In this document: piece after piece, positions 11,667 through 56,410 of the stretch | Layout: each line of letters opens with the position of its first letter | Numbering within the stretch: position 1 is the first letter of the stretch | From: Bacillota bacterium | Lineage (GTDB): Bacteria > Bacillota > SHA-98 > UBA4971 | NCBI GenBank assembly: GCA_050261335.1 | Contig: JBLNDE010000058.1 | Location: 102,968-166,967 of the forward strand | Reading direction: 5' to 3' | Length of the DNA: 64,000 nt | Notes under the pieces: model-generated | What the model saw: only the letters and a program-made list of their open reading frames with translations | Database searches by the model: none | Told to the model about the DNA's origin: nothing | Translations under genes and position numbers: made by a program

Positions 11667-11780
11667 CCTCATACCTCCGCATCACTCACGTCCTGGTGCA
11701 TCTGCGTGTGTGCCCGTGCCAGCGCGCTAGGGCCGTCACGTCACTAACCGACTCTCTTCGAGTCGCCAGCAACCCATCTC

Positions 11781-11890
11781 AAAGCCGGCAACATTCTTGC
11801 GCGAGACCGTTGATTCTCCCCGGTAACTGTCAGTTCGGCCGTGGACGGCGACCGTCTTCCGGGATTCCACCGGGTCGCGCTGCCATGAAA
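11781..11890. repeat. copy X of a ~110-nt duplicated non-coding element (second copy at 21048-21157)
   Basis: ~85% identity over ~110 nt: ...gcgcgagaccgttgattctccccggtaactgtcagttcggccgtggacggcgaccgtcttccgggattccaccgggtcgcgctgccatgaa. Confidence 0.6.
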
Positions 11891-15627: not shown

Positions 15628-15886
15628 CTTCAATCGCCCTCCTCGTAGACGTTCAGAGTCGTTCGCGTCACCCGCGTTACCCTTCGTGCAACCTTCGCGC
15701 CACCTTCTTGCCGCCCCTTCGTACCACCTCTCCCATCGTCTCGGGATGTTCCCGCGATCCCACCTGGATGCGTGGATGTGCGACCAATCGTCCTCTCGGC
15801 GAGTTCCGGCTTCATCCGGCTTCCGCCCCGCCTTCCTGGGCCGTTCCATCACCTCCCTTTGCTTTGAGTGTGACCGCGCCCTTGCG

Positions 15887-18658
15887 TCACACTGCCTTCA
15901 TCGAGTTCCCCCAGCCTTCGGGCAGAACCACCAGTTTGCAGCATTCGCCGGGGTCGAGGGCGACGTCGACGGAGCCTCCGGACGCCGCTTGGGTGCGCGC
16001 AGCCTCCCATCGCCCGTCCTTGCCGAGACAGGCCGCTTCCACTCTCCATGGGCGCCTGAGGTGGGCGGCGGAGGTGAGGTCCACGGTGCCCTGGAACCGC
16101 GTGGACGTCGGGTTGTACACCAGCACCGACCGGGGCGCGTCCTCGTCCATGAACGGGCGGTCCCAGTCGAGAAGGTCGAGGTAGACCGTGGTTATCGACG
16201 GGTCCGATGCCCTTGCGAATGCCTCGAACATGAGATACAGCCACAGGACCTCGCCGGCGCCGTATATCTCCTTGCCCACGTAACCTGTGGAGTCTGGTAG
16301 TTCCAGCGTGCCGATGTTCTCGTAGGGGATGTGGGGGCAGGCCGCTCCTGTCCGCTCCGGCTCCGGCAGGAAGGGATCGAAGTAGTAGAAGTTATTGCGG
16401 CGCTGAAGGTCCAGGACCCTGAGGAGGGCGGGGTTGAAACCGCCTTTTTTCAGCAGCGGCAGCCATGGCAGCACCGACTCGACGTTCTCCTTGAACGCAG
16501 GGTAAAGGATGGACGCGCATGCCTGGAAGAGGCCACGCGTGTGATACGCGCCGCGGCTTCGCGCGAGGTCATCGTACCAGTAAAGCATCCGCAGCTCGGC
16601 GCGGATGAGGTCATGAGAGATGCGGGCGAGGGACGGGTCGTCGAGGAGCGACGAAAGCTCGAAGGCCGCGAGCGCCCCGAACGCGAACTGCTGAGGCTCG
16701 TGGTACAGGAGGTCGAGCGGCAGCCTGATCATGGTCAGGAGGGCGTCCCTCGCCTCGCCCAGGAACTCCTCACGCCCGCTGAGGCGGAACGCGAGGACCG
16801 CGCCGTAGGCGTAGAGCCCGGCCACGGAGTAGTTCGTTCCCGAGTCCGCCGGCATACCGGTCGCAGGGTCGTAGAAGAGAGGGAAGACGTGGCGCACGTT
16901 GTGGGCGTAACGCCTGGCGCTCTCGAAAGCCGCCATGAACATGTTCGCGAGCTTCGCCGTGTCAGCCGCGGGGGGTGTGAGGCGGTGCGATTCCTGAAGT
17001 ATCTGCCATGCTTTTACTGCCTGCTGTGTCTGCTGTGTGTTCGGCGTGCGGGGCGCATGCGGCGCATGCGGCGCGTGCAATGCGCACAGTGAAGGCGGCA
17101 TCCGCCGCGCCGCCTGCTGCGCAGCCCGCTCACGCGTCTTCTGCGCCGCCTGCGACATCTCCAGGAGGTGCACGATCCACGGCCACTTGATGAGGCCATT
17201 CTCGAAGGAATACCACGTATCCACTTTCTCCTGGCCGTGCGTGTGCGGGTAGTTGTTGCTGATGAAGCCGATGTCCTCCCGGAAGAAGTGGGGGAGGGTG
17301 GCCGTCAGGCGGCGAAGGTACTCGAGCAGAGCCGAATCCGGGCCTGCGCTGACCCCCCGGGGCGCGTCGATCCCAGGGCCTCTCTCGCACGGGTGCTGCA
17401 GGCAGGAAGCGGGCTCACCGTGGCGGGCGGGTGCGGCCGCATCTTCGGATGAGGCGGCGGATCTGCCGGGCTCGCTTGCGCGGGCGTAGTGCAGGAGGGG
17501 CCAGAGCACGTCTGCCTGCGTCATCAGCTCGAACGACCGCGGCTCCGCCCACTGACGCGAGCTCGAGCGCACGTATGCGGGGTGACCCCAGATGCCCTCC
17601 ACCTCGGTCTGGCATGCTGGGTCGTGCATGAGCTCATCCAACGCCGCGCCGGCCACTTCCGCCCAGGAGCCACGTGGAAGGCGTCCACTCCGGCGCCCCT
17701 GCGACCGAGGCCCGAGTTCCGGCTTCTCATCGCCGCCGAGGAGCAGCGAGGCGGCGTCGATGAGCGTCGCGAGGGCATCCCACTGCGAAGGGATGTCCTG
17801 GCGGTGGCGCTGGTAGATTGAGTATCGGAAGACGTGGTCGCCTGCGGGGAAGACCCGGCCGTGGTAGTGGTCTGCCCAGAGCCCCACGCCGAACCGCTCC
17901 TTGCGCGGCCCGCCGAGCTTGCTTGAGCACAGGCAATCCTCGAACCTTGCCAGACTCGCCCGGGACATCCATGTCATGCAGGTCATGTCGAAGTACAGGA
18001 CGACCTCGGCACGTCGGACAGGGTCGTAGCAATACACGGCGGGGAAGTCGTTGCCCCGCACGCCGGTGCAGTTCCTCGTGGGGTTCGAGATGACGACCCT
18101 GCGCCACTCGTGGTTCTGGCGCTCGTTCATGGTGGCGTACTCTGACATCCAGAGGACTATCTCCGGCTCGATGGACGGGGATGGCTGAAGGACCAGCGGC
18201 CTTTCGAGGTGGACGGCGACGGACACGTGGATCCACGGGTCGCCGGGCGTCACGGAGACTTCGGCGTCGAACGGGTACAGGGCTTTGTCGACATCGCGAA
18301 GACCCTCCGCGTCCGTCGCGCAGTATTCGGGGTTGCGCGGGGCGGCGCCGTCTTTCGGCACGCATCCCGTTCCGGTCCCTGAGAAGAGGACGGCCTGCCG
18401 TCCGTCGCCGCGTGAGGGAGCGATGGTGTATGAAGACGGCGCAAGGTCGAAACTGGCCCCGCCCACGAGGACGTTGGGAAGGCCGGCGACAACCGTCCAC
18501 CCGGCTCCGTCGTGCACGCGGGTTGTGAAGCGCAGTCTACCGTCGTCCCCGCGCCTGAAGATCATCTGTTGCCCTGACGCGGTAACGACCGGCCCTGACG
18601 GCGTGTCGTATATGGCTGTGTCGCGTTCGGACAGACCTGGGAGGTCGCGGTCTTCCAT
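15887..18658 (-). CDS. large hypothetical protein (~920 aa), possibly a novel carbohydrate-active enzyme
   Basis: Long ORF with AGGAGG RBS before ATG 18658; immediately downstream of the LacI regulator and upstream of the sugar ABC transporter and glycosidase on the same strand; no confident family assignment from sequence alone. Confidence 0.55.
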   Translation of the reverse strand: MEDRDLPGLSERDTAIYDTPSGPVVTASGQQMIFRRGDDGRLRFTTRVHDGAGWTVVAGLPNVLVGGASFDLAPSSYTIAPSRGDGRQAVLFSGTGTGCVPKDGAAPRNPEYCATDAEGLRDVDKALYPFDAEVSVTPGDPWIHVSVAVHLERPLVLQPSPSIEPEIVLWMSEYATMNERQNHEWRRVVISNPTRNCTGVRGNDFPAVYCYDPVRRAEVVLYFDMTCMTWMSRASLARFEDCLCSSKLGGPRKERFGVGLWADHYHGRVFPAGDHVFRYSIYQRHRQDIPSQWDALATLIDAASLLLGGDEKPELGPRSQGRRSGRLPRGSWAEVAGAALDELMHDPACQTEVEGIWGHPAYVRSSSRQWAEPRSFELMTQADVLWPLLHYARASEPGRSAASSEDAAAPARHGEPASCLQHPCERGPGIDAPRGVSAGPDSALLEYLRRLTATLPHFFREDIGFISNNYPHTHGQEKVDTWYSFENGLIKWPWIVHLLEMSQAAQKTRERAAQQAARRMPPSLCALHAPHAPHAPRTPNTQQTQQAVKAWQILQESHRLTPPAADTAKLANMFMAAFESARRYAHNVRHVFPLFYDPATGMPADSGTNYSVAGLYAYGAVLAFRLSGREEFLGEARDALLTMIRLPLDLLYHEPQQFAFGALAAFELSSLLDDPSLARISHDLIRAELRMLYWYDDLARSRGAYHTRGLFQACASILYPAFKENVESVLPWLPLLKKGGFNPALLRVLDLQRRNNFYYFDPFLPEPERTGAACPHIPYENIGTLELPDSTGYVGKEIYGAGEVLWLYLMFEAFARASDPSITTVYLDLLDWDRPFMDEDAPRSVLVYNPTSTRFQGTVDLTSAAHLRRPWRVEAACLGKDGRWEAARTQAASGGSVDVALDPGECCKLVVLPEGWGNSMKAV

Positions 18659-18662
18659 GGAG

Positions 18663-19898
18663 TCATGCCTCCGTTTCGTTTGTCGGCTCGGACGTTTCGC
18701 CGCCCGCCGTGCCACTCGTGGCGGATGCAGGCATGGCCACCGTACCGCGCGTCATGAGCGTCGCCCGGATCACGATTTTGATCGGGGCGGGGTCGACCCC
18801 GTTGATGATATCCACGAGCCTGCGGGCGGCGATGGAACCAAGCTGCTGCTTTGGGATGTGCATCGTTGTGAGCGGGGGGTGGGTGTGGCTCGCCACCTGT
18901 ATGTCGTCGAACCCGATGACGGACACTTCGTCCGGCACCCTGATGCCGCGCTCGTGGAGAGCCTTGAGCACACCGAGCGCGGTCATGTCGTTGTCCGCGA
19001 ATATGGCGGTTGGCGACTGAGGCAGGTCCATCAGACGGAGCGTTCCCTCATATCCGATCTGCGGGCCATGCGTGTCAACGGACTCGGAGAACACCACCAA
19101 TCTACGATGGGACGGCAGGCGAAGTTCGTCAAGGGCCTTCGTATAACCAGCATAACGCTGCGCAAGGGAGATGTGCGACTGCGGCCCACCGACGAAAGCG
19201 ATCCGGCGGTGGCCGGAGCGGTATAGGTGCTCTATCGCAGACCTGGTCGCGGCCTCGTTGTCCGAGACCACGCAGTCTACAGGCTCGCCCGGAAGCTCGT
19301 TATCCACGAGGACCACCGGGATCCCACGCTCGCGGGCTGTCCGGGCCACCTGCGGGTGAACGTCGCATCCCACGAGGAGCAGTCCTCTGAAGCCGCTGCA
19401 GCCGTTCTCGCCTGCCTGATCAGCGAAGAGACCGCTGTTATCGCCGGCGCCGTCTATGCTTCGAAGGAAGACCCGGTAGCCCAGGTTCTGCAGGCTTTCC
19501 TCGATGCCCGCCACTACTGCGCCGTAGAACGGGTCGGTCACCAGGGACGAAAGCCGCCTGTTGAATACGATGCCGATGCTTGCGCTCAAGCCTCCAGACA
19601 CGCCGGCGCCCGCACCCACACTCGCGCCCGCGCCGCCGCCACTGCCACTGCTACTGGCGCCGCTGTTGCCGCTGCTATTGCCGGTGCTATTGCGGCCGCC
19701 GCCCGCGCCGTGCCATGCCCTGGGCCCCGTAGCCGCGTCCACCGCCTCCGCGCGTGGACGGTAGCCCAGTGACCGCGCTACGTTCAGGACGCGGGAACGG
19801 GTCCGCTCGCTGATCCGCCCTTTCCGGCTGAGGGCTCGTGATGCCGTGGAAGGCGAGACTCCGGCCTGCCTCGCGATCTCTCGAATGGTCGTGTCCAC
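18663..19898 (-). CDS. LacI-family transcriptional regulator with Gly/Ser-rich insertion
   Basis: N-terminal HTH (MDTTIREIARQAGVSPSTASRALS) and periplasmic-binding-fold C-terminal domain; ~60-aa G/S/A low-complexity insert after the HTH. Confidence 0.85.
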   Translation of the reverse strand: MDTTIREIARQAGVSPSTASRALSRKGRISERTRSRVLNVARSLGYRPRAEAVDAATGPRAWHGAGGGRNSTGNSSGNSGASSSGSGGGAGASVGAGAGVSGGLSASIGIVFNRRLSSLVTDPFYGAVVAGIEESLQNLGYRVFLRSIDGAGDNSGLFADQAGENGCSGFRGLLLVGCDVHPQVARTARERGIPVVLVDNELPGEPVDCVVSDNEAATRSAIEHLYRSGHRRIAFVGGPQSHISLAQRYAGYTKALDELRLPSHRRLVVFSESVDTHGPQIGYEGTLRLMDLPQSPTAIFADNDMTALGVLKALHERGIRVPDEVSVIGFDDIQVASHTHPPLTTMHIPKQQLGSIAARRLVDIINGVDPAPIKIVIRATLMTRGTVAMPASATSGTAGGETSEPTNETEA

Positions 19899-20230
19899 TG
19901 AGGAATCGTCTCCCTTTCGGCAATCGTCCTCCTGCCTCGGCGATCGTCTTCTTGCGGTCGCCGCGTTCTCGCTGCGGAGTGACGATCACTGTTGCAGTGT
20001 TGTGGTGTTCTGGTGTTGTGGTGTTGCGCAAACATGCGCACGCGTTGCCCATCTATTGATGCAATACTATGTCACGCGCCAGATTCCTCCTTTCGGGCGG
20101 AATTCTTTTCGCATTCGCAGCTTACCCAAGAATGCCAGCGGAGCAGGCAGAAGAGAGGGCGTACGCCACGCAGGCACGCTCGCGCGGACGCTCGCAGGCA
20201 TGTTGCGCACAGTTGCGCATCGCGCGCAGA

Positions 20231-20303
20231 AGGGAGACGGCTCGTCCCTGGTACTGCTCTGTCAGATACGAAATGCCATCCGGTCTTGGGGGTCTGGCGG
20301 GCT
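20231..20303 (+). repeat. conserved ~65-nt leader element, copy 1 (second copy at 23199-23279)
   Basis: gtactgctctgtcagatacgaaatgccatccggtcttgggggtctggcgggcttgtctggcagg vs gtactgctttgccagatacgaaataccacccggcctcgcgggcctggcgggtttgtctg...: ~85% identity; flanks not similar. Confidence 0.7.
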
Positions 20304-20350
20304 TGTCTGGCAGGTCGGCTCCTGGCCGTGGTGGCCGTGGTGGCCATGGT
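20304..20350 (+). repeat. short tandem repeat (GGCCGTGGT)x~4-5 between leader 1 and array 1
   Basis: tggccgtggtggccgtggtggccatggtggccgtggtggccc; absent from the second copy. Confidence 0.8.
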
Positions 20351-20389
20351 GGCCGTGGTGGCCCTTGACCGTGCAGTTCCTTGGAAACC

Positions 20390-20860
20390 CGTGATGTACG
20401 GAACGGGTGCCGCAGAAAGAGTGATGTACGTCAGCAGTCGGTTCCGATGCGTAACGCAAGGAACGGGTAAGGCCGGGACCGGTGACGTACATCAGCGGAT
20501 GGCGCTCAATGATGACGTAGGGAACAGCTCAGGGGGAACCCGTGATGTACGTCACCCGTCCCGCTTCGACGAGTGACGTACGGAACGATTTATGGAGAAC
20601 CCGTGATGTGGGGAACGGATAAGGCGGGAACGCTGATGTACGTCACCGATTGGCTCCCGATTCGTGACGTATGGAACGGGAAGAGCCAGAGGAGTGACGA
20701 GCGTCATCCTTCCCCTTGCATGCGTGACACAGGGAACGGGTAAGGTCCGGACCAGTGATGTACATCAGCGGATGGCGCTCAATGATGACGTAGGGAACCG
20801 TTGAGGACGGACCCGTGACGTACGTCAGCCGTCGGCTCTGGTGACGGCACTATCAGGCGC
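20390..20860 (+). repeat. array 1: ~15 direct repeats with ~30-31-nt period, each starting GTGAYGTAYG; alternating palindromic (GTGAYGTACGTCAC) and GGAAC-type (GTGACGTAnGGAACGGG) units
   Basis: Unit starts near 20390, 20420, 20451, 20481, 20512, 20541, 20571, 20602, 20633, 20662, 20693, 20722, 20753, 20784, 20813; ~66-nt segment duplicated within the array (20461-20525 vs 20727-20795). Confidence 0.85.
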
Positions 20861-20929
20861 TCCATATGTGACAGAGCAGTACTAAGTGAGGGTTCGTTGG
20901 CTCTTCCCCGTTTTCTAGCGGCTGCTGGG

Positions 20930-21045
20930 CTCTCGGTGTTGCACTCGGAGACGGCGCTCTGAGCCGGGCGCGCTTCGCCAAAACCTGGCTCGCCGGGCCA
21001 GTCGCCGGGTCTTGACACCTCTCGTGCAGTCACCGCGAGCCCCTC
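20930..21045. repeat. dispersed intergenic repeat family 2, copy A (core GTTGCACTCGGAGACGGCGC...GGGCGCGCTTCGCCAA)
   Basis: Shares 60-120 nt of similarity with copies at 56280-56410, 49398-49560, 40970-41070 and 25487-25580. Confidence 0.55.
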
Positions 21046-21047
21046 CC

Positions 21048-21157
21048 AAAGTCGGAAGCATTTCCGCGCGAGATCGTCGATTCTCCCCAGTAACTGCCAG
21101 TTTGGGCGTGGACGGCGACCGTTTTCCGGGATTCCACTGAGTTGCGTTGCCATGAAG
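21048..21157. repeat. copy Y of the ~110-nt duplicated element (see 11781-11890)
   Basis: ...gcgcgagatcgtcgattctccccagtaactgccagtttgggcgtggacggcgaccgttttccgggattccactgagttgcgttgccatgaa; ~135 nt upstream of the DUF1848 gene. Confidence 0.6.
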
Positions 21158-21293
21158 TGGAGGAAACCGGCAATCTCCTGCACCATCACTTGGGGGGGCG
21201 GGGCAGAGGGCTGCTTGGCTTTTACCGACGCTTCTTTGGGTGTAGAATGCTATTGGCAGGAGCACGCTGCCCGCCCTGCCTTCCTCGCACGAG

Positions 21294-22148
21294 GTGAGCG
21301 AAGTGATCATTAGCGCAAGCCGCAGGACTGACATACCGAAGTTCTACGCCGAGTGGTTCATGGACCGCGTTCGCGCCGGCCGCTGCGCGTGTCCGAATCC
21401 CTTCAATCCGAAGCAGGTCTTCGAGGTGTCCCTGCGGCCCGAGGACGTTGACGTGATCGTCTTCTGGAGCAAGGACCCGGATCCCCTCCTGGCGCACCTG
21501 GACGAGCTCGACCGCAGGGGGTTCAGGTACTACTTCCAGTTCACCCTGAACGGCTATCCGTCGTTCCTGGAGCCGGGCGTGCCGCCGCTGGAGAAGACCT
21601 TCGCGACGTTCAGGCGCCTGTCGGAGGCGGTCTCTCCTGAAAGGGTGATCTGGCGCTACGACCCGATAGTGCTCACCAGCGTGACTGATGCTTCATATCA
21701 CGAGCGCCGGTTCCGGGAGATCGCAACGGCCCTCGCGGGCAGAACCAGGCGCGTGGTCATAAGCCTCGTCGACGATTATCGGGGCTCGCGCGCTCGCCTC
21801 GCCCGGCTGGCAGGCCAGGGCATACAGGTAGCGCAGCGATGCAGCGCCGATGACCCGCCCACGGCAGGCCTCCTTGCGACTATGGCGCGCGTCGCCGTCG
21901 AGTCGGACATGGAGATCGTGACCTGCGCTGAGGAGAAGGGCCTCGAAAGCCTCGGGATCAAGCCCGGCAAGTGCATCGACGACGAGTACATCGCCCGCGT
22001 TTTCGGCATCCGCGTCCCGGGCAAGAAGGACCCCGGCCAGCGCGCGGCATGCGGCTGCGTCGTGAGCAGGGATATCGGCGTGTACGGCACGTGCCGGCAT
22101 GGTTGCCTCTACTGCTACGCTTCCGCAACCGTCCCGCAACTTTCTTGA
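21294..22148 (+). CDS. DUF1848-family protein with C-terminal Cys cluster (possible Fe-S enzyme)
   Basis: N-terminal ISASRRTDIPKFYAEWF characteristic of DUF1848; C-terminal CGCVVSRDIGVYGTCRHGCLYC; GTG start; candidate -10 TAGAAT at ~21243. Confidence 0.65.
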   Translation: MSEVIISASRRTDIPKFYAEWFMDRVRAGRCACPNPFNPKQVFEVSLRPEDVDVIVFWSKDPDPLLAHLDELDRRGFRYYFQFTLNGYPSFLEPGVPPLEKTFATFRRLSEAVSPERVIWRYDPIVLTSVTDASYHERRFREIATALAGRTRRVVISLVDDYRGSRARLARLAGQGIQVAQRCSADDPPTAGLLATMARVAVESDMEIVTCAEEKGLESLGIKPGKCIDDEYIARVFGIRVPGKKDPGQRAACGCVVSRDIGVYGTCRHGCLYCYASATVPQLS

Positions 22149-22167
22149 CAACTGGGGTCCGGTAGTC

Positions 22168-22205
22168 CTAGAATAAAGGCGGCGATCATATATATGTAGC
22201 ATGCA
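22168..22205 (+). promoter_or_regulatory. AT-rich imperfect palindrome (ATATATGTAGCATGCATATAT) plus TAGAAT element upstream of the padR-like gene; candidate autoregulatory operator/promoter
   Basis: Only strongly AT-rich stretch in the local region, centred on GCATGC, immediately upstream of RBS AGGGAG. Confidence 0.35.
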
Positions 22206-22224
22206 TATATAGGGAGCGATCAGA

Positions 22225-22644
22225 ATGTGCAACGATGATCGGGACCGGTGCCACTCCAACGGGTCGAGGGCCCACAGGTGCGACTGCGCAGGTTCGCGGG
22301 TCGAGCGCTTCATCGAGCCGTGCCTGCTCTTGCTCCTGCTCGAGAAGCCTGCGCACGGGTACGACCTGATGGAACGGCTCAGGGAATTCGGGTTCGATGC
22401 CGAAGACCAGGACCCCGGCATGGTATACCGCAACCTTCGGCGCCTCGAACACCAGGGCATGGTCGAATCCGAGTGGGACACATCCGGGCCTGGCCCCGCA
22501 AAGCGCCTCTACCAGGTCACAGCGGAAGGTCGCGACTTACTTCAGGCGTGGAGCGCGGTCATCAGGCGGAACAAGGCGACCCTCGAGGAATTCCTCGAAC
22601 GTTACGAAGCTCTGGCAGGACGATCCGATACTCCCTCCGGATGA
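22225..22644 (+). CDS. PadR-family transcriptional regulator with Cys/His-rich N-terminal extension
   Basis: Winged-helix PadR core (LLLLLLEKPAHGYDLMERL...MVYRNLRRLEHQGMVESEW...KRLYQVTAEGR); N-terminus MCNDDRDRCHSNGSRAHRCDCAG; AGGGAG RBS. Confidence 0.75.
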   Translation: MCNDDRDRCHSNGSRAHRCDCAGSRVERFIEPCLLLLLLEKPAHGYDLMERLREFGFDAEDQDPGMVYRNLRRLEHQGMVESEWDTSGPGPAKRLYQVTAEGRDLLQAWSAVIRRNKATLEEFLERYEALAGRSDTPSG

Positions 22645-22885
22645 CTCCCGCTTCCTCATCGCGTATGGTAAACGTGGTACACGGGATGTGGGGATGCGCG
22701 TCTTTGGCAAAGGGCTGGCTTTGGAGCCGGCTTCCAGAAAAGCGCCCCACGACTCCTGCCGGGCGGTGCTGCGGGTGGCGGGGGAGGACGAATTTCCAGC
22801 TTGGGGCCAGAGAAGGTGGCCAATCTGAAGGGCTTATCCCTAAGGGCGAGACCCGGAAGGCGGGCATGGAAAGGAGGGGGAGGAC

Positions 22886-23107
22886 GTGATGTGTTGTGAA
22901 GGACACACTTACCATCATGGTGCAAGGGAGCATGCGGGCGGAGGATGCTGCTGCCATGCGGAGCCACGATATTTCCATAGGCGCTTCTTTTCGCGCGAGG
23001 AGACCCTTGGGATGCTCAAGGACTACCTCGAAGACCTGAGGGCCGAGGTGCGCGAGGTCGAGAGGCGGATAGAGTGCCTCGAGAAGGACGCTCATAAAGA
23101 GGAGTAG
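22886..23107 (+). CDS. DUF5320-family small protein (Cys/His-rich N-terminus plus coiled coil)
   Basis: MMCCEGHTYHHGAREHAGGGCCCH...RRFFSREETLGMLKDYLEDLRAEVREVERRIECLEK; strong RBS AGGAGGGGGAGG. Confidence 0.6.
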   Translation: MMCCEGHTYHHGAREHAGGGCCCHAEPRYFHRRFFSREETLGMLKDYLEDLRAEVREVERRIECLEKDAHKEE

Positions 23108-23198
23108 GGTGGCATCTCTTCACGGAAGGCGGCCCGCACATGTGTTGGTTTGCGTATGCATTGAGTCGTTGGCGGGCCGCCTGTCACGTTTTGGCCTA

Positions 23199-23279
23199 GT
23201 ACTGCTTTGCCAGATACGAAATACCACCCGGCCTCGCGGGCCTGGCGGGTTTGTCTGCGTCTGGCAGGGGGGGCGCCGG
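23199..23279 (+). repeat. conserved leader element, copy 2
   Basis: See 20231-20303. Confidence 0.7.
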
Positions 23280-23352
23280 GGAGGGATGGAGCGACTCGTG
23301 GTCTTGGTGACCCTTGACAGCGTGGCTCCCGGAAGACCGTTCCCGGAAGACC

Positions 23353-23895
23353 CGTGATGTGCTGAAGGGGTAGTACGGAAAGAGTGACGCACGGTACCCG
23401 TCCCGTTGCACGCGTGACACAGGGAACCGGTGAGGACAGGACTAGTGCTGTACATCAGCGGACGGCTCCCAAGCGTAACGTGCAGAACGCTTGGGAAACA
23501 ACCCGTGATGTGCGTCACCCGTCCCGGTTCGAGAGTGACGTATGGAAGACTTCGCGGTGGAGCCGTGACGCAGGGAACGAATAGGGTGGCAGTGATGATG
23601 CACGTCACTGATCAGGCGCGGATGCGTGACGTGCGGAACACTTCATGAGGAACACGTGACGGAGGGAACGGGTAAGGCGGGAAGGATGACGTACGTCACG
23701 GATCGGGTCCTGATGCGTGACGCGCGGAACGGGAAGAGCCTGACCAGTGACGTAGGTCACGCGTTCCCTGGCACATGTGATGTTGGAAACGGGTAGGGCC
23801 GTGACGGGTGAGGTGCGTCACCCGATAGCTGTCAACGATCACGTGGGGAACGCTTAGTGAAACACCCGTGACCTACGTCAACCGTCAACTTCCAG
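23353..23895 (+). repeat. array 2: ~18 direct repeats with ~30-nt period, same GTGAYG-initiated repeat family as array 1
   Basis: Unit starts near 23353, 23384, 23414, 23445, 23475, 23505, 23535, 23565, 23592, 23626, 23656, 23687, 23716, 23746, 23776, 23800, 23842, 23867; includes palindromic units (GTGATGTGCGTCACCC, TGACGTACGTCAC) and GGAAC-type units. Confidence 0.85.
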
Positions 23896-23950
23896 GGCCA
23901 TCGAACGGCGGGAGCGGGGGAGCCGTCGGTTTTCCGCGTTCAAAGAGCGA

Positions 23951-24487
23951 ATGGTCTTCCCAGCGGACTCGAAATGGGCGCACTGTCCAGACAGGGGGTG
24001 GACTGTTACGTTCACGTCGACTACATATACAATCGCTATTGTGTTTTTCCTCATCTCATTCGCGAAGGACCGCGACAGGACCCGCACGGCCTTACGTAAG
24101 TCCCTCGCCGCGTTTCTCGGTATCCTTCCTGACTTCGCGGCGGTGCTGGCCGTTGTTGGGCTTGTTCTGACGTTCCTGTCCCCGACGACAGTGGCCGGAC
24201 TCATAGGGGCGGGGACCGGGTTTGTCGGGATGATCATCACCTCGCTCATAGGCGCCGTCACCCTGATCCCGGGTTTTGTCGCTTTCCCGCTCGCTAAGTC
24301 CCTCCTTGAACGCGGCGCCGGGATCGCCCAGATAGCAGTGTTTGTGTCCACGCTCATGATGGTCGGCTTTGTGACCGCACCTCTTGAGATCCGCTACTTC
24401 GGCAGGAAGGTCACGCTCCTCAGGAACGGTCTCGCATACCTGTATTCCTTCATAGTGGCCTTCATCATAAGGGTGGTGGTTAAGTGA
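23951..24487 (+). CDS. permease (DUF318/PF03773), first subunit of a split two-component membrane permease
   Basis: Hydrophobic multi-TM ORF; stop overlaps GTG start of second half (GTGA); true start may be downstream of 23951. Confidence 0.6.
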   Translation: MVFPADSKWAHCPDRGWTVTFTSTTYTIAIVFFLISFAKDRDRTRTALRKSLAAFLGILPDFAAVLAVVGLVLTFLSPTTVAGLIGAGTGFVGMIITSLIGAVTLIPGFVAFPLAKSLLERGAGIAQIAVFVSTLMMVGFVTAPLEIRYFGRKVTLLRNGLAYLYSFIVAFIIRVVVK

Positions 24488-25227
24488 GCCGCTCACTGCA
24501 CGATGATCCACCACGCGAGAGTAGCCCGGCCAGTGCTATGGTAACCGGCGATATCAGCCCGAGGCCGGGGGTGGCACCGGCCTCGGACACCGCGGACGCC
24601 GCGAATTGCGCCACGGGGGGCGGCCGCCCCGTAGCGGCGCACAGAACAGCGGCGCACAGAACGATTGGCACGATGGGCCGGAGCCGGCTGGCGGCGGTCG
24701 CGAGGGTGGCCCTCCGCTACAGGGTGTTTCTCCTCATCATAGCCGCCGACGCAGTGATCTGGGCGGTTCGTCCCAGCGCCGGAACGGCGGTGTTCGAGCG
24801 CACGCTGTCCAATTTCGCTGAAATGGCGGCTGTCCTACCGCCGATCTTTCTCTTGATCGGCCTGTTGGATGTCTGGGTCCCGAGGGAGACTCTCATGCGG
24901 TTTCTCGGCGATAGATCCGGGCTCCTTGGGGTCGCCATCAGCATTGTCCTTGGAGCTGTGGCCGCAGGTCCTCTCTACGCCGCCTTCCCGGTGGCGGCCA
25001 TCATGATGAGAAAAGGTGCTAAGTTCTCCAATGTGACCGTGTTCCTCGGCTCCTGGTCCACCCTGAAGATCCCCATGGCTCTCTTCGAGGCATCGGCGCT
25101 CGGCGCCCGTTTCGCCATCACGCGCTGGATCGCGAGCGTGCTCGGGGTTGCTGCAATGGCCGTAATCATCGACCGCGCCGTCACTAAGGACGAGAAACGT
25201 GCGGTGTACACTCGGCATGAGGTCTGA
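24484..25227 (+). CDS. permease (DUF318/PF03773), second subunit of the split permease
   Basis: Multi-TM C-terminal region resembling predicted-permease family; N-terminal 60 aa low-complexity, alternative start ATG ~24673. Confidence 0.6.
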   Translation: MSRSLHDDPPRESSPASAMVTGDISPRPGVAPASDTADAANCATGGGRPVAAHRTAAHRTIGTMGRSRLAAVARVALRYRVFLLIIAADAVIWAVRPSAGTAVFERTLSNFAEMAAVLPPIFLLIGLLDVWVPRETLMRFLGDRSGLLGVAISIVLGAVAAGPLYAAFPVAAIMMRKGAKFSNVTVFLGSWSTLKIPMALFEASALGARFAITRWIASVLGVAAMAVIIDRAVTKDEKRAVYTRHEV

Positions 25228-25486
25228 CCATCGCGCAGCGTCTGTCCGCCTGCGCCATCACCTGAGACCACGGCGATTTGGTTCGCAAGAGCCGCAAGGA
25301 GGTTCGCACGGGCCGTGGATCTCGCAGATCGTCCAGCAACTGCCTGATTTTCGTTGACTGCCCACTTCGGGGAGCGTATAGTAGTGATGAAAGGGGGGAG
25401 ACGAGCGTGGACGGCGACCCAGGTAGTACCGGGCTACGCGGCCTCCGGTGCCGGAGTTCGGGAACCGCGGCTGCCTCTGGCGTCTA

Positions 25487-25580
25487 GGCATGGCGCCATA
25501 AGTTCTCGCCACTTTTCTTGAGGGTGCTAGGGTTGCCTGTGCTTGCTGGGGCGGGGTGCCGGGAATTTGGCTGGCCCGTG
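25487..25580. repeat. dispersed repeat family 2, copy E (5' module ATGGCGCCATAAGTT...GGTTGCC.GTGCTTGC...)
   Basis: ~80% identical over ~75 nt to 49398-49475. Confidence 0.55.
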
Positions 25581-25584
25581 CGCC

Positions 25585-25700
25585 AGATTCGGACGAGGCT
25601 CGCCGCACGCGCCGTCCCCGGAGGGCAACACCGGCAACCCTGCTGGAAAGGACTCGCCCGCTGAAATGGGGCGCGAACTTGCGGCGATGCACTTAGCATG
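25585..25700. repeat. dispersed repeat family 3, copy F2 (CCGCACGCGCCGTCCCCGGAG.GCAACAC.GGCAAC...GCTGAAA...GCGCGAA...GGCGAT..ACTTAGC)
   Basis: ~110 nt similar to 33880-33995. Confidence 0.55.
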
Positions 25701-26028
25701 CCTTTCCGGGAGCATTGACCCCTCGTGATGCGGCGCGCATCCGCGCGTTCGAGGGTGTTCCGCGCGAGGGCGCCGGGAGGTTGCGCCGGGTTTCGCGACC
25801 CTGGCCCCATGGGCCAAGGATGAGTTGTGACCCGACGTGAGATCTCAGGCCGCTTTCCTTGTGTACATCTCGCGGACACCCGTTTGAACAGACGACCTGC
25901 GCGCAGGCGCGACAGGGTGCGGGCTTCGGGCGGGCCGGCCGGCGGGCGGACGGGCAGGTATGCACGCTGACCGACGCCGAAACCGGACCTTCGGACGCGC
26001 CGCACTGGGCATCGAGGGAGGGGTACGA

Positions 26029-33840: not shown

Positions 33841-33879
33841 CGCCTGAGCATACCGCGATAAGCCTTGAGCGCCGAATTC

Positions 33880-33995
33880 GAACGCATCTCACCGCACGCG
33901 CCGTCCCCGGAGTGCGACACGGGCAACTCTGGATAGAGCCTGCGCGCTGAAAAGTAGCGCGAAATGGTGGCGATCTACTTAGCGCCTTGCGGCCG
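33880..33995. repeat. dispersed repeat family 3, copy F1
   Basis: See 25585-25700. Confidence 0.55.
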
Positions 33996-34894: not shown

Positions 34895-35254
34895 CTACAT
34901 CTCCACGAGGCCGAGGCTGATCTCGAGGGCTCTTTCGACCCGGTCCATCGTGACCGGGTCAAGGTGGGAAACCTTCTCGATGAGTCTGCGGCGGTCTATC
35001 GTCCGCAGCTGCTCGAGAAGGATGACCGAATCCATCGGCAGTCTGCTCTTGCTCGAATGCAGTTCGACGTGGGTGGGAAGCCGCGCCTTGTCGATGCGCG
35101 AGGTGATGGCCGCCACGATCGTGGTGGGGCTGTACCGATTCCCGATGTCGTTCTGGAGGATCAGGACTGGCCTCGTGCCGCCCTGCTCCGAGCCGATGAC
35201 GGGGTTCAGGTCCGCGTAGAAGATGTCGCCGCGCCTAAGCTCCTTCGGTTCCAT
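34895..35254 (-). CDS. mazF: MazF/PemK-family endoribonuclease toxin
   Basis: [52 protein letters not shown] typical of MazF/PemK. Confidence 0.85.
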
Positions 35255-35504
35255 TGCTGCGCGCCAGGACCTCCTCGTAGAGGGCGAGGGCCTCGTTCTC
35301 CACTGCCACGGCTTCGCCGGCAAGCTCGAGGTTCAGCCCGGCCATCTTCCGGTAGCCCTCCTTCAGCCTTTCGCGCAGTTCCAGCCTGCGCTTCTCCTCG
35401 ATGTAGCGTCGCATGGCCTCCCGTATGAACTCGCTCCGGTTCCGCTTCTCCTGCCTTGCGATCCCATCAACCTCCTGCAAAAGGCTATCCGGCAGGGTGA
35501 TCAT
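35235..35504 (-). CDS. mazE: ribbon-helix-helix (CopG/MazE-like) antitoxin
   Basis: [37 protein letters not shown]; AGGAGGATC RBS abutting ATG 35504; overlaps toxin start by 20 nt. Confidence 0.8.
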
Positions 35505-40884: not shown

Positions 40885-40969
40885 CGTGGTGAGCGACTTG
40901 CGCAGGGTGATACCAGGTAGATCGTCGCAGACCCGCGCCACTTGTGAGTACGGGAATCCTGTCCAGGGT

Positions 40970-41070
40970 CGCCGGTGTTGCACTCCGGGGACTGCGCGTG
41001 CGGAGCGATGCGTTCGAGTCTGGCGCTCAAGACCGGCCGAATTCCGGGCGCCCCGCCCTGGCAAGCACCG
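40970..41070. repeat. dispersed repeat family 2, copy D
   Basis: ggtgttgcactccggggactgcgcgtgcggagcg...; upstream of the SpoIID-like gene. Confidence 0.5.
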
Positions 41071-41107
41071 GCAGCTCCGACATCTTCAGGAAAAGCAGCG
41101 CAGATGT

Positions 41108-43207
41108 ATGGCACCATACTTAGTGACTGCACTGGCCCTGAGTATCGTGGGCGCGCGGGCGTGGGGCTTCTTCGCCTCGGAGCCGGCGGAAGCCGCGGAC
41201 GGCGTGGTGGGTGGCAAAGCGGTATCCGCCGAGGCTGGGGTCAGGGCCGAGGCTGCGACCGGCGCCGAGGCCGAGGCCGGGACCGGGGCGGCTCATATCA
41301 TGATGCAGGTGCGCCTCTCGGCGCGGTCGCCCGTCAGGTTCACACTGGACCAGGACGCGACGGCCATGGCGGTCTGGGACGAGGTGATCGCGCGCGAGAC
41401 CACGCTCGGAAGGTCGTTCACAGCTGTCCTGGGTGCCTCGGGAGCGGGCGACGGTGCTTACCAGGTGGAGGTGGCGAGGTTCGAGCACATCGAGGATGCA
41501 CTCGGCCTGCGGTCAAAGCTCGCAACATGCCTTTCGTATGACGACAGGGTGCGGTGTCTGCCGTACATCGTGCCCGAGGGTGACAGATGGGTCCTGCGGA
41601 TCGGCAAGACGGGCGATCCGGACACGGTGTACAGGCTGCGGGCGGCGCTCGCTTGGGCGGGGATGGAGCGGGGCTTCTTGCCGACCCCCGTCGTCGTGAG
41701 GCCGCAGGCCGAGGAGAGGACGCGCCTCGTGGCCGCGGGCGGGGCCTGCGAGGTGCGCGCCGGCGATCTTCCCGGTGAGGTCGTGCTGGCAACCGCGTCC
41801 GGCGAGTCCATGTCCTTCCCGGGCGGGCGCGTGCGCATCGTGCCGCGCAACCCTCTGGATATCGGGTTTACGCTGGGCGGTGTCCGCTACAAGGGTGAAC
41901 TCGAGGTAGCACGCAGGGACTCCTGGGACGGCAAGGTCGAGCTTGTGGCGACAAATCGCGTCGACATCGAGTCCTACGTGGAGGGTGTGTTGGCAGGCGA
42001 GGTGTACCCCAACTGGGAGATGGAGGCGCTCAAGGCGCAGGCAGTTGCGGCGAGGACGTACGCGCTCTACCGTAAGGCCGACAGCTACTACGACCGCGGG
42101 TACGATGTAGACGATACGGTGGCGTACCAGAAGTATTCGGGCGGGCACGCCATACAGTCGTTCCGGCAGGCGGTGGCCGAGACCCGCGGCGAGGTCATTA
42201 CTTACCAGGGCAGGCTCATAAAGGCGCATTACTTTGCTTCAGGCGGCGGAACGACCGAGGGTGACGAGGAGATCTGGCCCGGCGGCGGAGACGAGCCTTA
42301 CCTTGAGGCAGTGGCGGACTTCGACCAGATCTCGCCGCATTACCTCTGGCAGAATCCCCTGGCGATGTGGGCGGGGGATCTCCTCGCAAAGCTCGGCCTC
42401 GGGGCGGCGTTTCCCGCGTGGATCGAGCCCTCGCTGACGTCAGACTCGGGCGAGAAGGTGCTCGCGTACCGTTTCCGTACGGCCGCCGGCAGCGTGACCC
42501 TGACGCGGGAACAGGTCAGGCGCAAGCTGGGTCTCAAGAGCCCTCTCTTCACCATCAAGCTCATCGGGACTGAGGAGACGCGTGTCGCCCTGCCGCGGGC
42601 GACGCCGCTTGCGTCTCCCGAACCCGGGCCGGATGGCTCAGGCAAGCCCGGCGCTCCCGGAGCGCCGCCAGGTGCGGCGGGGGGAGCGGCGCACGGTGCG
42701 GCTGTTGTGGCTTCGAGCGGGGCCGGTAGCCCCGTGCTTCCCGCAGTCGGTGGCTGCGTGCCGGTGAGGGACGGCGCCATTACAACCGGCTACAGGGTCA
42801 AGCTGGACAGCGACGTGTTCGTGACGGGCACAGCGGTCGGTCCCGGACGCGCCGGAGAGTTGTCTCCCGCGACCCTCGTCGTCATCGACGGCGCAGGGTA
42901 CGGCCACGGTGTGGGCCTCAGCCAGTGGGGCGCGCAGGGCATGGCACTCATGCGGGACGAGTCTGGAAAGCCTCTGTATACATACGTGGACATCCTGAAG
43001 CATTACTACACCGGGGTAGAGGTAGTGGGCAACTACAACCTACCCGTCGTCCCTGCGGGCCCCGGTCCCGGGACCGCCCCCGATGTCGTCCCCGATGCGG
43101 TTCCCGGCGCTGCTCCCGGTCAGAGCGTCCCCAATCAGGAGGCCCCCGGTCGCAGCACCCCTCCTGCTGACCTCCCCGCCACGGATGTCTCTTTCGAGCG
43201 TCGGTAG
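41108..43207 (+). CDS. SpoIID/LytB-domain protein with N-terminal signal anchor and Pro/Ala-rich C-terminal tail
   Basis: SpoIID/LytB domain blocks (LKAQAVAARTYALYR, GEVITYQGRLIKAHYFASGGGTTEG); ATG 41108 gives a signal-peptide-like MAPYLVTALALSIVGARA; the ORF opens at 40691. Confidence 0.7.
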   Translation: MAPYLVTALALSIVGARAWGFFASEPAEAADGVVGGKAVSAEAGVRAEAATGAEAEAGTGAAHIMMQVRLSARSPVRFTLDQDATAMAVWDEVIARETTLGRSFTAVLGASGAGDGAYQVEVARFEHIEDALGLRSKLATCLSYDDRVRCLPYIVPEGDRWVLRIGKTGDPDTVYRLRAALAWAGMERGFLPTPVVVRPQAEERTRLVAAGGACEVRAGDLPGEVVLATASGESMSFPGGRVRIVPRNPLDIGFTLGGVRYKGELEVARRDSWDGKVELVATNRVDIESYVEGVLAGEVYPNWEMEALKAQAVAARTYALYRKADSYYDRGYDVDDTVAYQKYSGGHAIQSFRQAVAETRGEVITYQGRLIKAHYFASGGGTTEGDEEIWPGGGDEPYLEAVADFDQISPHYLWQNPLAMWAGDLLAKLGLGAAFPAWIEPSLTSDSGEKVLAYRFRTAAGSVTLTREQVRRKLGLKSPLFTIKLIGTEETRVALPRATPLASPEPGPDGSGKPGAPGAPPGAAGGAAHGAAVVASSGAGSPVLPAVGGCVPVRDGAITTGYRVKLDSDVFVTGTAVGPGRAGELSPATLVVIDGAGYGHGVGLSQWGAQGMALMRDESGKPLYTYVDILKHYYTGVEVVGNYNLPVVPAGPGPGTAPDVVPDAVPGAAPGQSVPNQEAPGRSTPPADLPATDVSFERR

Positions 43208-48202: not shown

Positions 48203-49397
48203 GGCCTGGCGGAGGCTGGAGGAGCACCTTCCTCCGGGCCCGCACGAGACCGCGACGGTCGGCCTCTTCGAGGCCTGTGGCCGCGTGCTTGCGGAGGACG
48301 TGGCGTCCCCGGGCGACCTGCCGGGCTTCCCCAGGTCGACGGTGGACGGCTTTGCGGTCCGCGCCCGCGACACGTTCGGGGCGACGGAGGGCCTGCCCGC
48401 GATCCTCACCCTTGGCGGTGAGGTGCGCATGGGCGAGGAGGCCCGCTTCGTCGTTGGCCCAGGGAAGTGCGTCCGGGTCGCAACCGGCGCGATGATGCCC
48501 CCCGAAGCGGACGCCGTGGTGATGGTGGAGACCGCCGAAGACATAGGGGACGGGCTCGTCGCCGTCACCAGGCCCGTAGCGCCGGGCGAGAACGTCGTGG
48601 GTGCAGCGGAGGACGTGGAGGGTGGCGACGTCCTGGTGCGTAAGGGCGCGAGGCTGCGCCCGCAGGACATCGGCGCGCTCGCGGCTGCGGGGGTCTCCCG
48701 GGTGAGAGTGGCCGTCGGCCCAAAGGTGGCGATAATGTCCACCGGAGACGAGCTGGTGGAGGTCTCCTGTGCGCCCGCCCCCGGAGAAGTGCGCGACACG
48801 AATTCATACTCGCTGTACGCAGCGGCGCTCGCCGAAGGTGCCCGACCGGTGGCGACGGGGGTCGTGAAGGACGATTACGATGAAATCGCCCTGGCCATGC
48901 GCGAGCAGCTTTCCCGCGCGGACATGCTCATCGTCTCGGGCGGCAGCTCAATCGGGGCGCGGGACTTCGCCCGCAACGCCATGGACTCGCTGGGACGGCC
49001 CGGGGTGCTGGTGCACGGAGTCGCAGTGCGCCCGGGCAAGCCCACCATCCTCGCGGCGGCTGACGGAAAGCCCGTGTTCGGCCTGCCTGGTCACCCGGTG
49101 TCGTGCCTGACCGTCTTCAGGCTCTTCGTGGCGCCTGCCATAGCGAGGTGGATGGGGACCCGCCCGCAGCGGCGCGATGTCGAGGCGCGCCTCGGGGCCA
49201 ATGTTGCGTCGGTGGCCGGCCGCGAAGACTACGTCGGGGTGAGGCTCGTGCTGCGCGATGGCGTGAGATGGGCGGAGCCGGTCTTCACGAAATCCGCCCT
49301 GATATCAGGGCTTGTGGCTTCCGACGGGGTCGTGAGGATCCCGGCAGACGTCGAGGGCCTGGAGAAGGGTGCCCCTGTTACCGTCGCCCTGTTCTAA
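48159..49397 (+). CDS. moeA: molybdopterin molybdenum/tungsten-transferase MoeA
   Basis: MoeA domains (LEACGRVLAEDV, GGSSIGARDF, PGKP); start overlaps tupC 3' end (alternative later starts possible). Confidence 0.8.
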   Translation: MMELPLFLSLTPPDEAWRRLEEHLPPGPHETATVGLFEACGRVLAEDVASPGDLPGFPRSTVDGFAVRARDTFGATEGLPAILTLGGEVRMGEEARFVVGPGKCVRVATGAMMPPEADAVVMVETAEDIGDGLVAVTRPVAPGENVVGAAEDVEGGDVLVRKGARLRPQDIGALAAAGVSRVRVAVGPKVAIMSTGDELVEVSCAPAPGEVRDTNSYSLYAAALAEGARPVATGVVKDDYDEIALAMREQLSRADMLIVSGGSSIGARDFARNAMDSLGRPGVLVHGVAVRPGKPTILAAADGKPVFGLPGHPVSCLTVFRLFVAPAIARWMGTRPQRRDVEARLGANVASVAGREDYVGVRLVLRDGVRWAEPVFTKSALISGLVASDGVVRIPADVEGLEKGAPVTVALF

Positions 49398-49560
49398 GTA
49401 TGGCGCCATAAGTTTGCGCCATCTTCCCTGACGGTGTTGGGGTTGCCGGTGCTTGCACTCCGGGGACGGCGCCCCAGGTCAGGGCGCGCTGTGGCAGTAT
49501 CTGGATTGCCCGGCAACCGACGGGGGCTCGAGGCCTCTTGTGTAGTCACCTCAGCGTACT
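49398..49560. repeat. dispersed repeat family 2, copy C (begins immediately after the moeA stop)
   Basis: tatggcgccataagtttgcgccatcttccctgacggtgttggggttgccggtgcttgcactccggggacggcgcc... Confidence 0.55.
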
Positions 49561-56209: not shown

Positions 56210-56279
56210 CGTTCCCGTGCGCCCTGAGCAGATCGCCGCAAATCTGCGCTGCTCTTCAGCGCGCAGGTCCTCGCCAGGG

Positions 56280-56410
56280 TTGTCGCTGGTGCACTCGGGG
56301 ACGGCGCGCCAAGCGGGGCGCGCTTCGCCAAGAGCCGGCCTGTCGGGCGGGCGGCCGGATTCTAACACCCCTCGTGCCGCACCGTGTGTCTGCACGTCGG
56401 GCGATAAGGC
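56280..56410. repeat. dispersed repeat family 2, copy B
   Basis: ggtgcactcggggacggcgcgccaagcggggcgcgcttcgccaagagccggcc...; between convergent guaA and the purine permease. Confidence 0.55.

Follow-up and report, generated by a model that had tools for sequence, protein, structure and literature searches.

A phased 30-nt repeat array as the probable core of a MITE-like, high-copy composite element in uncultured Bacillota

What is a long, strictly phased array of short repeats doing in the noncoding DNA between a LacI-family gene and a DUF1848 gene, and is it a locus in its own right or part of something larger? The DNA in which the question arises, a 64-kb stretch that we analyzed as a whole and call the window, is chromosomal, has a GC content of ~65%, and comes from a sporulating, flagellated Bacillota lineage whose genes here include SpoIID, FapA, TsaBDE, MazF, molybdenum cofactor genes, and sugar ABC transporters. 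A first-pass annotation had singled out a periodic array at ~20390-20860 and read it as recognition sites for a sequence-specific, possibly dimeric protein or as a structured repeat RNA. Judged from sequence comparisons across genomes, it forms the core of a composite element that is MITE-like, present in high copy number, and restricted to a lineage of uncultured Bacillota.

The array itself is real and non-random. Segmentation of 20100-21200 resolves 15 clear head-to-tail units of 30 or 31 nt each at 20391-20840, which bears out the annotated region, with unit starts at 20391, 20421, 20451, 20482, 20512, 20542, 20573, 20603, 20633, 20664, 20694, 20724, 20755, 20785, and 20815. The spacing follows a strict 30, 30, 31 cycle, so that three units span 91 nt and the mean is 30.33 nt; the repeat of ~30 nt described earlier thus stands, while its exact value of ~30.5 nt does not. 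Two further, degenerate units that start with GTGAC (20841 and 20868) lie immediately 3′ of the array. The units are of two types: P units carry a dyad, GTGA-N6-TCA(C), and read GTGAYGTACRTCA(C/G), an imperfect 14-bp dyad, and G units carry GTGA-N6-GAAC, with the consensus GTGAYGTAnGGAAC and no complementary arm. Across the array they run G P G P G P G G P G P G P G P, so that the alternation reported in the first pass holds except for one break, where units 7 and 8 are both G. The statement that every unit begins with GTGAYGTAYG proved too strong: the match is exact in only 6 of the 15, the rest being variants with one to three mismatches (GTGAYGTAYG variants in the array include GTAACGCAAG, ATGACGTAGG, CTGATGTACG, GTGACGAGCG, and GTGACACAGG). 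Likewise, the supposedly perfect palindrome GTGACGTACGTCAC is found nowhere in the window, where only one-mismatch versions occur, at 20542 and 20815. Even so, GTGAYGTA is found 14 times in the window against 1.6 expected, all 14 inside this element family, and TGAYGNNNGGAAC at no more than one mismatch gives 23 matches against 9.1 expected. The units within the array are only 33-70% identical to one another, yet the same seven core positions recur in all of them. The internal duplicate of ~66 nt at ~92% identity is genuine (58 of 62 positions identical at an offset of 273 nt, 20461-20522 versus 20734-20795) and belongs to a 171-nt duplication (20390-20560 versus 20663-20833, 78% identity). 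The unit-level expansion once read from it is ancient and fixed in the family, most copies having the same 15 units in the same order. As annotated, no credible ORF and no frame of high GC3 were found over the array; its 91-nt super-period is not a multiple of 3, and indels differ between element copies.

What the first pass overlooked is the main point: the array does not stand alone but lies inside a multi-copy element bounded by terminal inverted repeats. The array makes up the inner part of a 630-bp element (20252-20881) that lacks an ORF and whose termini, TACTGCTCTGTCA...TGACAGAGCAGTA, form imperfect terminal inverted repeats of ~26 bp. Read along the plus strand, the parts begin with the left flank CTGG (20248-20251), a degenerate YTAR that is CTAA in the orthologous copy of the Yes71-24 genome, followed by the left terminal inverted repeat, TACTGCTCTGTCAGATACGAAATGCC (20252-20277), at which homology among copies starts sharply. 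This repeat opens a leader module (20252-20390) that is kept in all copies and that encloses a 9-nt tandem repeat, TGGCCGTGG, in 4.6 copies (20323-20363). The 15-unit array (20391-20840) comes next and gives way to a tail module (20841-20881) consisting of the two degenerate units and the right terminal inverted repeat, ...CCATATGTGACAGAGCAGTA (20856-20881), beyond which lies the right flank CTAA, a YTAR, at 20882-20885, as placed by comparison with the empty site in locus L005. Measured as 20251-20277 against 20856-20882, the inverted repeat is 81% complementary over 27 nt, and its outer 14 nt are perfect (GTACTGCTCTGTCA / TGACAGAGCAGTAC). These boundaries are shared. When 20100-21200 was compared by BLAST with all fetched loci, nearly all full copies gave matches that started at 20248-20254 and ended at 20881-20896; 19 copies aligned with MAFFT have collinear units in identical order and unrelated flanks, and homology among 18 copies begins and ends at the terminal inverted repeats. 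The canonical length is 603 bp, exactly so in seven copies, and the window copy measures 630 bp instead because the 9-nt repeat of its leader has expanded by 27 nt relative to the canonical copy. An intermediate expansion of the same leader repeat is seen at locus L028.

A family profile searched with nhmmer finds exactly three copies in the window, all with the ~140-nt leader in common. The second copy (23200-23890, plus strand) belongs to a subfamily, B, with 18 units; it is collinear with the first array and 77% identical to it apart from three extra units, and its left end is intact with a CTAG flank, whereas its last ~55 nt, the right inverted repeat included, are missing. The third is a remnant on the minus strand (12049-11882), reduced to its left inverted repeat, leader, and two units, which correspond to positions 1-168 of the 603-position profile; it sits directly 3′ of the stop codon of an ABC permease gene. 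The first array lies between the divergent LacI-family gene on its left (18663-19898, minus strand) and the DUF1848 gene on its right (21294-22148), and the second is flanked by PadR (22225-22644) and ArsP-like permease genes. Could the arrays be tied to these DUF1848 and PadR neighbors? That idea was rejected, as the same genes lack arrays in relatives and arrays occur in unrelated contexts; in the syntenic loci L001-L006, retrieved through DUF1848 homologues of 74-93% identity, the intergenic region is short and holds no array. The interval from DUF1848 to CorA, which in the window contains ~3.8 kb (22149-25960) comprising PadR, the second array, the ArsP-like ORF, and a repeat, is missing from the more distant relatives L001-L004, and the Yes71-24 genome has an extra 1.4-kb insertion between DUF1848 and PadR (L039, 6127-7542) that holds an abundant short repeat. 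The DUF1848-CorA locus is an insertion hotspot. Elsewhere in the window, a molybdenum-cofactor riboswitch (RF01055, 45652-45797, 60.9 bits) precedes genes for a molybdate-type ABC transporter and for MoeA/MoaC, which is an ordinary arrangement, and a MazF/PemK-type toxin gene occupies 34895-35332 on the minus strand.

How far does the family extend? Scanning 185,579 species genomes with a P-then-G pattern returned 62 loci. About 36 collinear intergenic loci on more than 25 contigs fall in a single Bacillota metagenome-assembled genome, Yes71-24, many with two to six pattern matches each, and further copies occur in Firmicutes UBA6811, AS02xzSISU_21, MAG-64, and Clostridia MAG111; the remaining loci are single matches in unrelated taxa, roughly the number expected by chance. 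In the metagenome scan, multi-match contigs came almost only from JGI sample Ga0067045, related samples, and one ENA bioreactor assembly, and a search of plasmids, phages, and viral contigs gave no real matches. Array lengths are quantised at 455, 425, 395, 364, and 546 bp, mostly 455 bp, which corresponds to 15 units; unit number thus varies among copies, and most keep 15 in fixed order. Subfamily B, with its 18 units, reaches a full length of ~757 bp at L019 and L010. Truncated and decaying copies are also present. One of them, truncated and degenerate, is orthologous between two loci, a bioreactor contig among them (L087, 1247-1520; L046, 2674-2939), whose flanks are ~82% identical, and because this degenerate orthologous copy persists, the family predates the split of the two lineages.

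Short elements of 132-143 bp with TACTGCTCTGTCA termini and YTAR flanks but no array are found at L012 (5852-5983) and L067 (6611-6753), the former abutting a full copy and sharing its CTAG, which suggests a wider MITE superfamily served by one transposase. Directly downstream of the first array follow members of two more repeat families (20927-21035, similar to 56277-56384; 21019-21156, similar to 11752-11889). The right-flank sequence CTAAGTGAGGGTTC... is common to many array elements at other loci, and since it recurs, the element tends to sit end-to-end with another repeat. Another short interspersed repeat is scattered over both strands of the window (25483-25704, 33861-33988, 40959-41123, 49393-49456, 56221-56308), with ~75-160 bp aligned per copy and 76-85% identity between copies, and it is present in nearly every 8-kb Yes71-24 locus, with 34 matches to one 200-bp segment. 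Genomes of the Yes71-24 type appear unusually rich in intergenic repeats.

The flanks carry the signature of insertion. Over ~92% identity spanning 15856-22590 of the window, a filled site is found at the same position in L039 (Yes71-24) and L055 (UBA6811), and the LacI-DUF1848 intergenic region lacks the element in the more distant relatives L001-L006. The inferred empty site, CCC(T/C)AAGTGAGG, occurs once in L005, where the sequence reads ...CCCCAAGTGAGG... in place of the filled ...CCCTAA[element]CTAAGTGAGG.... Both flanks follow Y-T-A-R among 26 distinct copies, 21-22 of which have TA on a given side; the left 4-mer equals the right one in 5 of the 26, about the level of chance given the YTAR pattern, and the flanks together with this one empty-site comparison fit duplication of TA as well as duplication of YTAR. 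IS630 has a CTAG target and duplicates TA. A like ambiguity is described for IS711, an IS5-family member in which TA within YTAR is duplicated and which inserts preferentially into other repeats, the Bru-RS (PMC2266754), and IS5 itself duplicates YTAR (PMC5009759). Furthermore, the inverted-repeat ends co-vary (pair 5/757 is GC in nine copies and AU in four), as would be expected if one protein reads both ends. We infer that the element is, or formerly was, moved in trans by the cut-and-paste action of a DDE transposase, which would recognize the TACTGCTCTGTCA termini and insert at TA within YTAR, and which probably would be of the IS5 family, IS427 group (IS711), or of the IS630 family. The features of a MITE are present in the sharp-ended terminal inverted repeats, the 603-757 bp without coding capacity, and the dispersed copies with presence/absence differences. 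A cognate autonomous insertion sequence with matching inverted repeats was missing from the DNA sampled, the window plus ~290 kb: Pfam searches of all large window ORFs revealed no transposase, SPFH and PBP paralogues accounted for all multi-copy ORFs in the ~290 kb of Yes71-24 loci, and pairs of inverted-repeat-like termini 0.9-3 kb apart yielded no candidate.

If the ends serve transposition, what do the units serve? With seven core positions defined per unit (1-4, GTGA; 11-13, TCA or GAA), divergence from the majority base among 16 dispersed copies is 1.2-2.4% in the cores, compared with 14-15% in the linkers, 9-20% in the N6 centre, 12-15% in the leader, and 19-20% in the tail and inverted repeat; the cores are about ten times better conserved than linkers, leader, or inverted repeats. 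The contrast between core and remainder holds at G/C and A/T positions separately (Mann-Whitney p ~1e-10) and extends to distant subfamily copies, from which cores differ by 6-19% and linkers by 16-44%, with the 30/31-bp phase retained in subfamilies ~30% diverged. Considering such conservation of the cores at a fixed phase of 30.33 bp, the most likely role of the units is as double-stranded DNA sites recognized by a sequence-specific protein, and the first-pass idea of sites for a possibly dimeric protein fits these data. By virtue of their dyad, P units would be putative dimer sites, and G units putative hybrid or half sites. An excess of T5/G10 over C5/A10 among 220 P units was considered as covariation within the palindrome and set aside, as it reflects only seven ancestral units and is not independent evidence. 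The right inverted repeat shares only GTGAC with the array core motif, and since that motif differs from the inverted-repeat sequence, binding by the end-recognition domain of a transposase is not implied. Overall, we consider it probable that this is a MITE-like, BOX-like composite element, with the array forming its internal modules and the cores most likely serving as protein recognition sites.

Whose protein would read them? The more likely course is that the sites are kept because the element needs them in cis to propagate, for instance as accessory sites for the transposase or a cofactor. Alternatively, they may be kept because a host protein uses them: the dispersed arrays would then be exapted landing pads for a dimeric DNA-binding protein of the host, perhaps a CRP/FNR/Rex-like regulator of GTGA-N6-TCAC or a nucleoid-associated protein, with the spacing of about three helical turns allowing a cooperative filament or wrap and mobility being a mere means of spread. 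Such use could account for a core deficit of substitutions in resident copies, where selection for transposition should not act: in six orthologous pairs compared in situ, cores show 5/344 substitutions and linkers 45/850 (Fisher p=0.002; p ~0.02 without one noisy pair). The GTGA/TCAC arms around a tolerant N6 centre, the 30.33-bp phase shared across subfamilies, and a mild orientation bias, by which 22 of 32 elements point the same way as the downstream gene, would also suit a host reader. The constraint in place, however, is not universal, as the older orthologous pair L046/L087 (~82% identical) has 8/56 substitutions in cores and 28/158 in linkers, a decaying copy whose cores are not spared, and two of the three window copies are truncated. 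The arm spacing of GTGA-N6-TCAC is that used by CRP/FNR/Rex-type proteins, whose consensus sites are TGTGA / GTGAA; the P units have the GTGA/TCAC arms and a variable centre but not the flanking T/A of such operators. GTGA-N6-TCAC occurs seven times in the 64-kb window, only three of them outside elements, with ~1.1 expected by chance, and as it is not enriched outside elements there is no sign of a host regulon with such a site. An element-encoded reader is favored by arrays that stay conserved along still-transposing lineages and decay in old resident copies, and a host reader by the core deficit in young orthologous copies. Host use of the platforms is, in our estimation, possible but doubtful, and that purifying selection by the host keeps transposon-seeded intergenic multi-site platforms for a DNA-binding protein seems unlikely in the same measure.

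Might the array instead be doing nothing at all? A functionless minisatellite that expanded in tandem and hitch-hiked in a successful MITE would leave internal duplications, such as the 273-nt offset and a 91-nt insertion, and variation of unit number among copies, both of which are seen. Neutral expansion is nevertheless very unlikely to have preserved the same seven core positions in units that are 33-70% identical within a copy, or to have produced the roughly tenfold stronger conservation of cores over linkers seen across copies and subfamilies. A structured or sponge RNA, in which the array forms a multi-hairpin transcript like a CsrB-type decoy with GGA motifs, gains from the many GGA motifs, a conserved TTGAC motif in the leader, and folding that is better than that of shuffled sequences (z = -3.9 and -5.3 on the two strands). 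Low folding energy, however, is expected of any repeated palindromes, and here both strands score. The structured RNA proposed in the first pass found no support: RNAalifold on 15 copies puts the covariation term at -0.24 kcal/mol, compensatory pairs being all but confined to the inverted repeats, Rfam gave no match at gathering thresholds or at E<5, and a scan for promoters and terminators in and beside the array was unconvincing, with no -10 box or terminator detected. Since the cores are nearly invariant (GTGA above all) and RNA covariation is missing, what is conserved is a bipartite, sequence-specific motif at fixed phase and not base pairing, the G units having no partner arm in any case; we accordingly rate an RNA function highly improbable. 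A cluster of REP/BIME type, spread through the action of a REP-associated tyrosine (HUH) transposase on single-stranded hairpins, would share the palindromic units, the two alternating types, the intergenic location, and the many copies, and is scarcely credible given that all units are direct rather than alternately inverted as in BIMEs, that the whole 603-bp block moves as one piece with terminal inverted repeats and YTAR/TA flanks, and that no RAYT-like gene is present in the window or sampled loci. Finally, a plasmid-type centromere or iteron array, or a degenerate CRISPR array, evoked by the phased, dyad-bearing direct repeats and by a leader-plus-array layout that is superficially CRISPR-like, is effectively refuted by copy number and context, namely near-identical copies by the dozen on each chromosome, the lack of par, rep, or cas genes nearby in the window, inter-core sequences shared by every copy rather than unique spacers, and no plasmid or phage matches.

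What would a mobile element with such an interior mean? Bacterial MITEs are usually short and AT-rich, with little inside. The present element differs from those described in its size, its GC-richness, its fixed complement of 15-18 diverged modules, and its cores as the most conserved part. Cores that are better conserved than the element's own inverted-repeat ends point either to a cis-acting architecture for mobilisation or to the spread of ready-made binding platforms. Should the latter hold, the chromosomes of an uncultured, high-GC Bacillota lineage would be strewn with transposon-delivered, phased landing pads, possibly used in regulator titration, local repression, or nucleoid organisation, and would offer a bacterial counterpart of the dispersal of regulatory sites by eukaryotic transposons. 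For genome scans the lesson is that an apparently unique repeat array should first be tested as a copy of an interspersed element.

In known systems, the closest architecture is that of the BOX elements, with MITEs of the IS5 and IS630 families next. Pneumococcal BOX elements are built as boxA - boxB(n) - boxC with a variable number of boxB modules (PMC3049150). Like them, the present element is a composite, noncoding, intergenic interspersed repeat in which inverted-repeat-like terminal modules surround a variable tandem array; mobilisation in trans is supposed for both, and members of either kind lie among, or directly beside, other repeat families. The likeness is claimed for architecture alone, as the sequences appear unrelated and the two differ in host clade and base composition. 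Unlike BOX, it is made of 15-18 modules of 30/31 nt, which alternate between two types, are diverged (33-70% identity) around an invariant 7-nt core, and keep a fixed order across copies; it is also GC-rich, 603-757 bp long, and flanked by YTAR/TA. With MITEs of the IS5 family (IS427 group, IS711) and the IS630 family, such as RUP, Correia, and Nezha, it shares terminal inverted repeats, a TA-centred YTAR target, the lack of an ORF, high copy number, intergenic location, empty sites in relatives, and insertion beside or into other repeats, as for IS711 and Bru-RS (PMC2266754). It is larger than most bacterial MITEs and not AT-rich, and where others hold a simple spacer or hairpin, it holds a long array under selection; literature searches for the palindrome and for prokaryotic MITEs with tandem repeats found no match. 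The BIME-2/REP clusters of E. coli are likewise regular intergenic arrays of two kinds of palindromic unit with specific linkers. They serve as protein-binding platforms for gyrase and IHF. Their units, however, are found in alternating orientation and associated with RAYT transposases, and neither terminal inverted repeats nor a target duplication accompany them, whereas the units here are all direct and form a block with inverted-repeat ends. Lastly, phased direct repeats with a short dyad at whole-helical-turn spacing, a layout that suits cooperative binding, recall iterons, NrdR-box-like phased operators, and sopC of the F plasmid, whose 12 repeats of 43 bp each contain a dyad bound by SopB; the motif here is unrelated, no partition, replication, or regulator genes lie alongside the array, and each chromosome has dozens of copies, which a mobile element carries.
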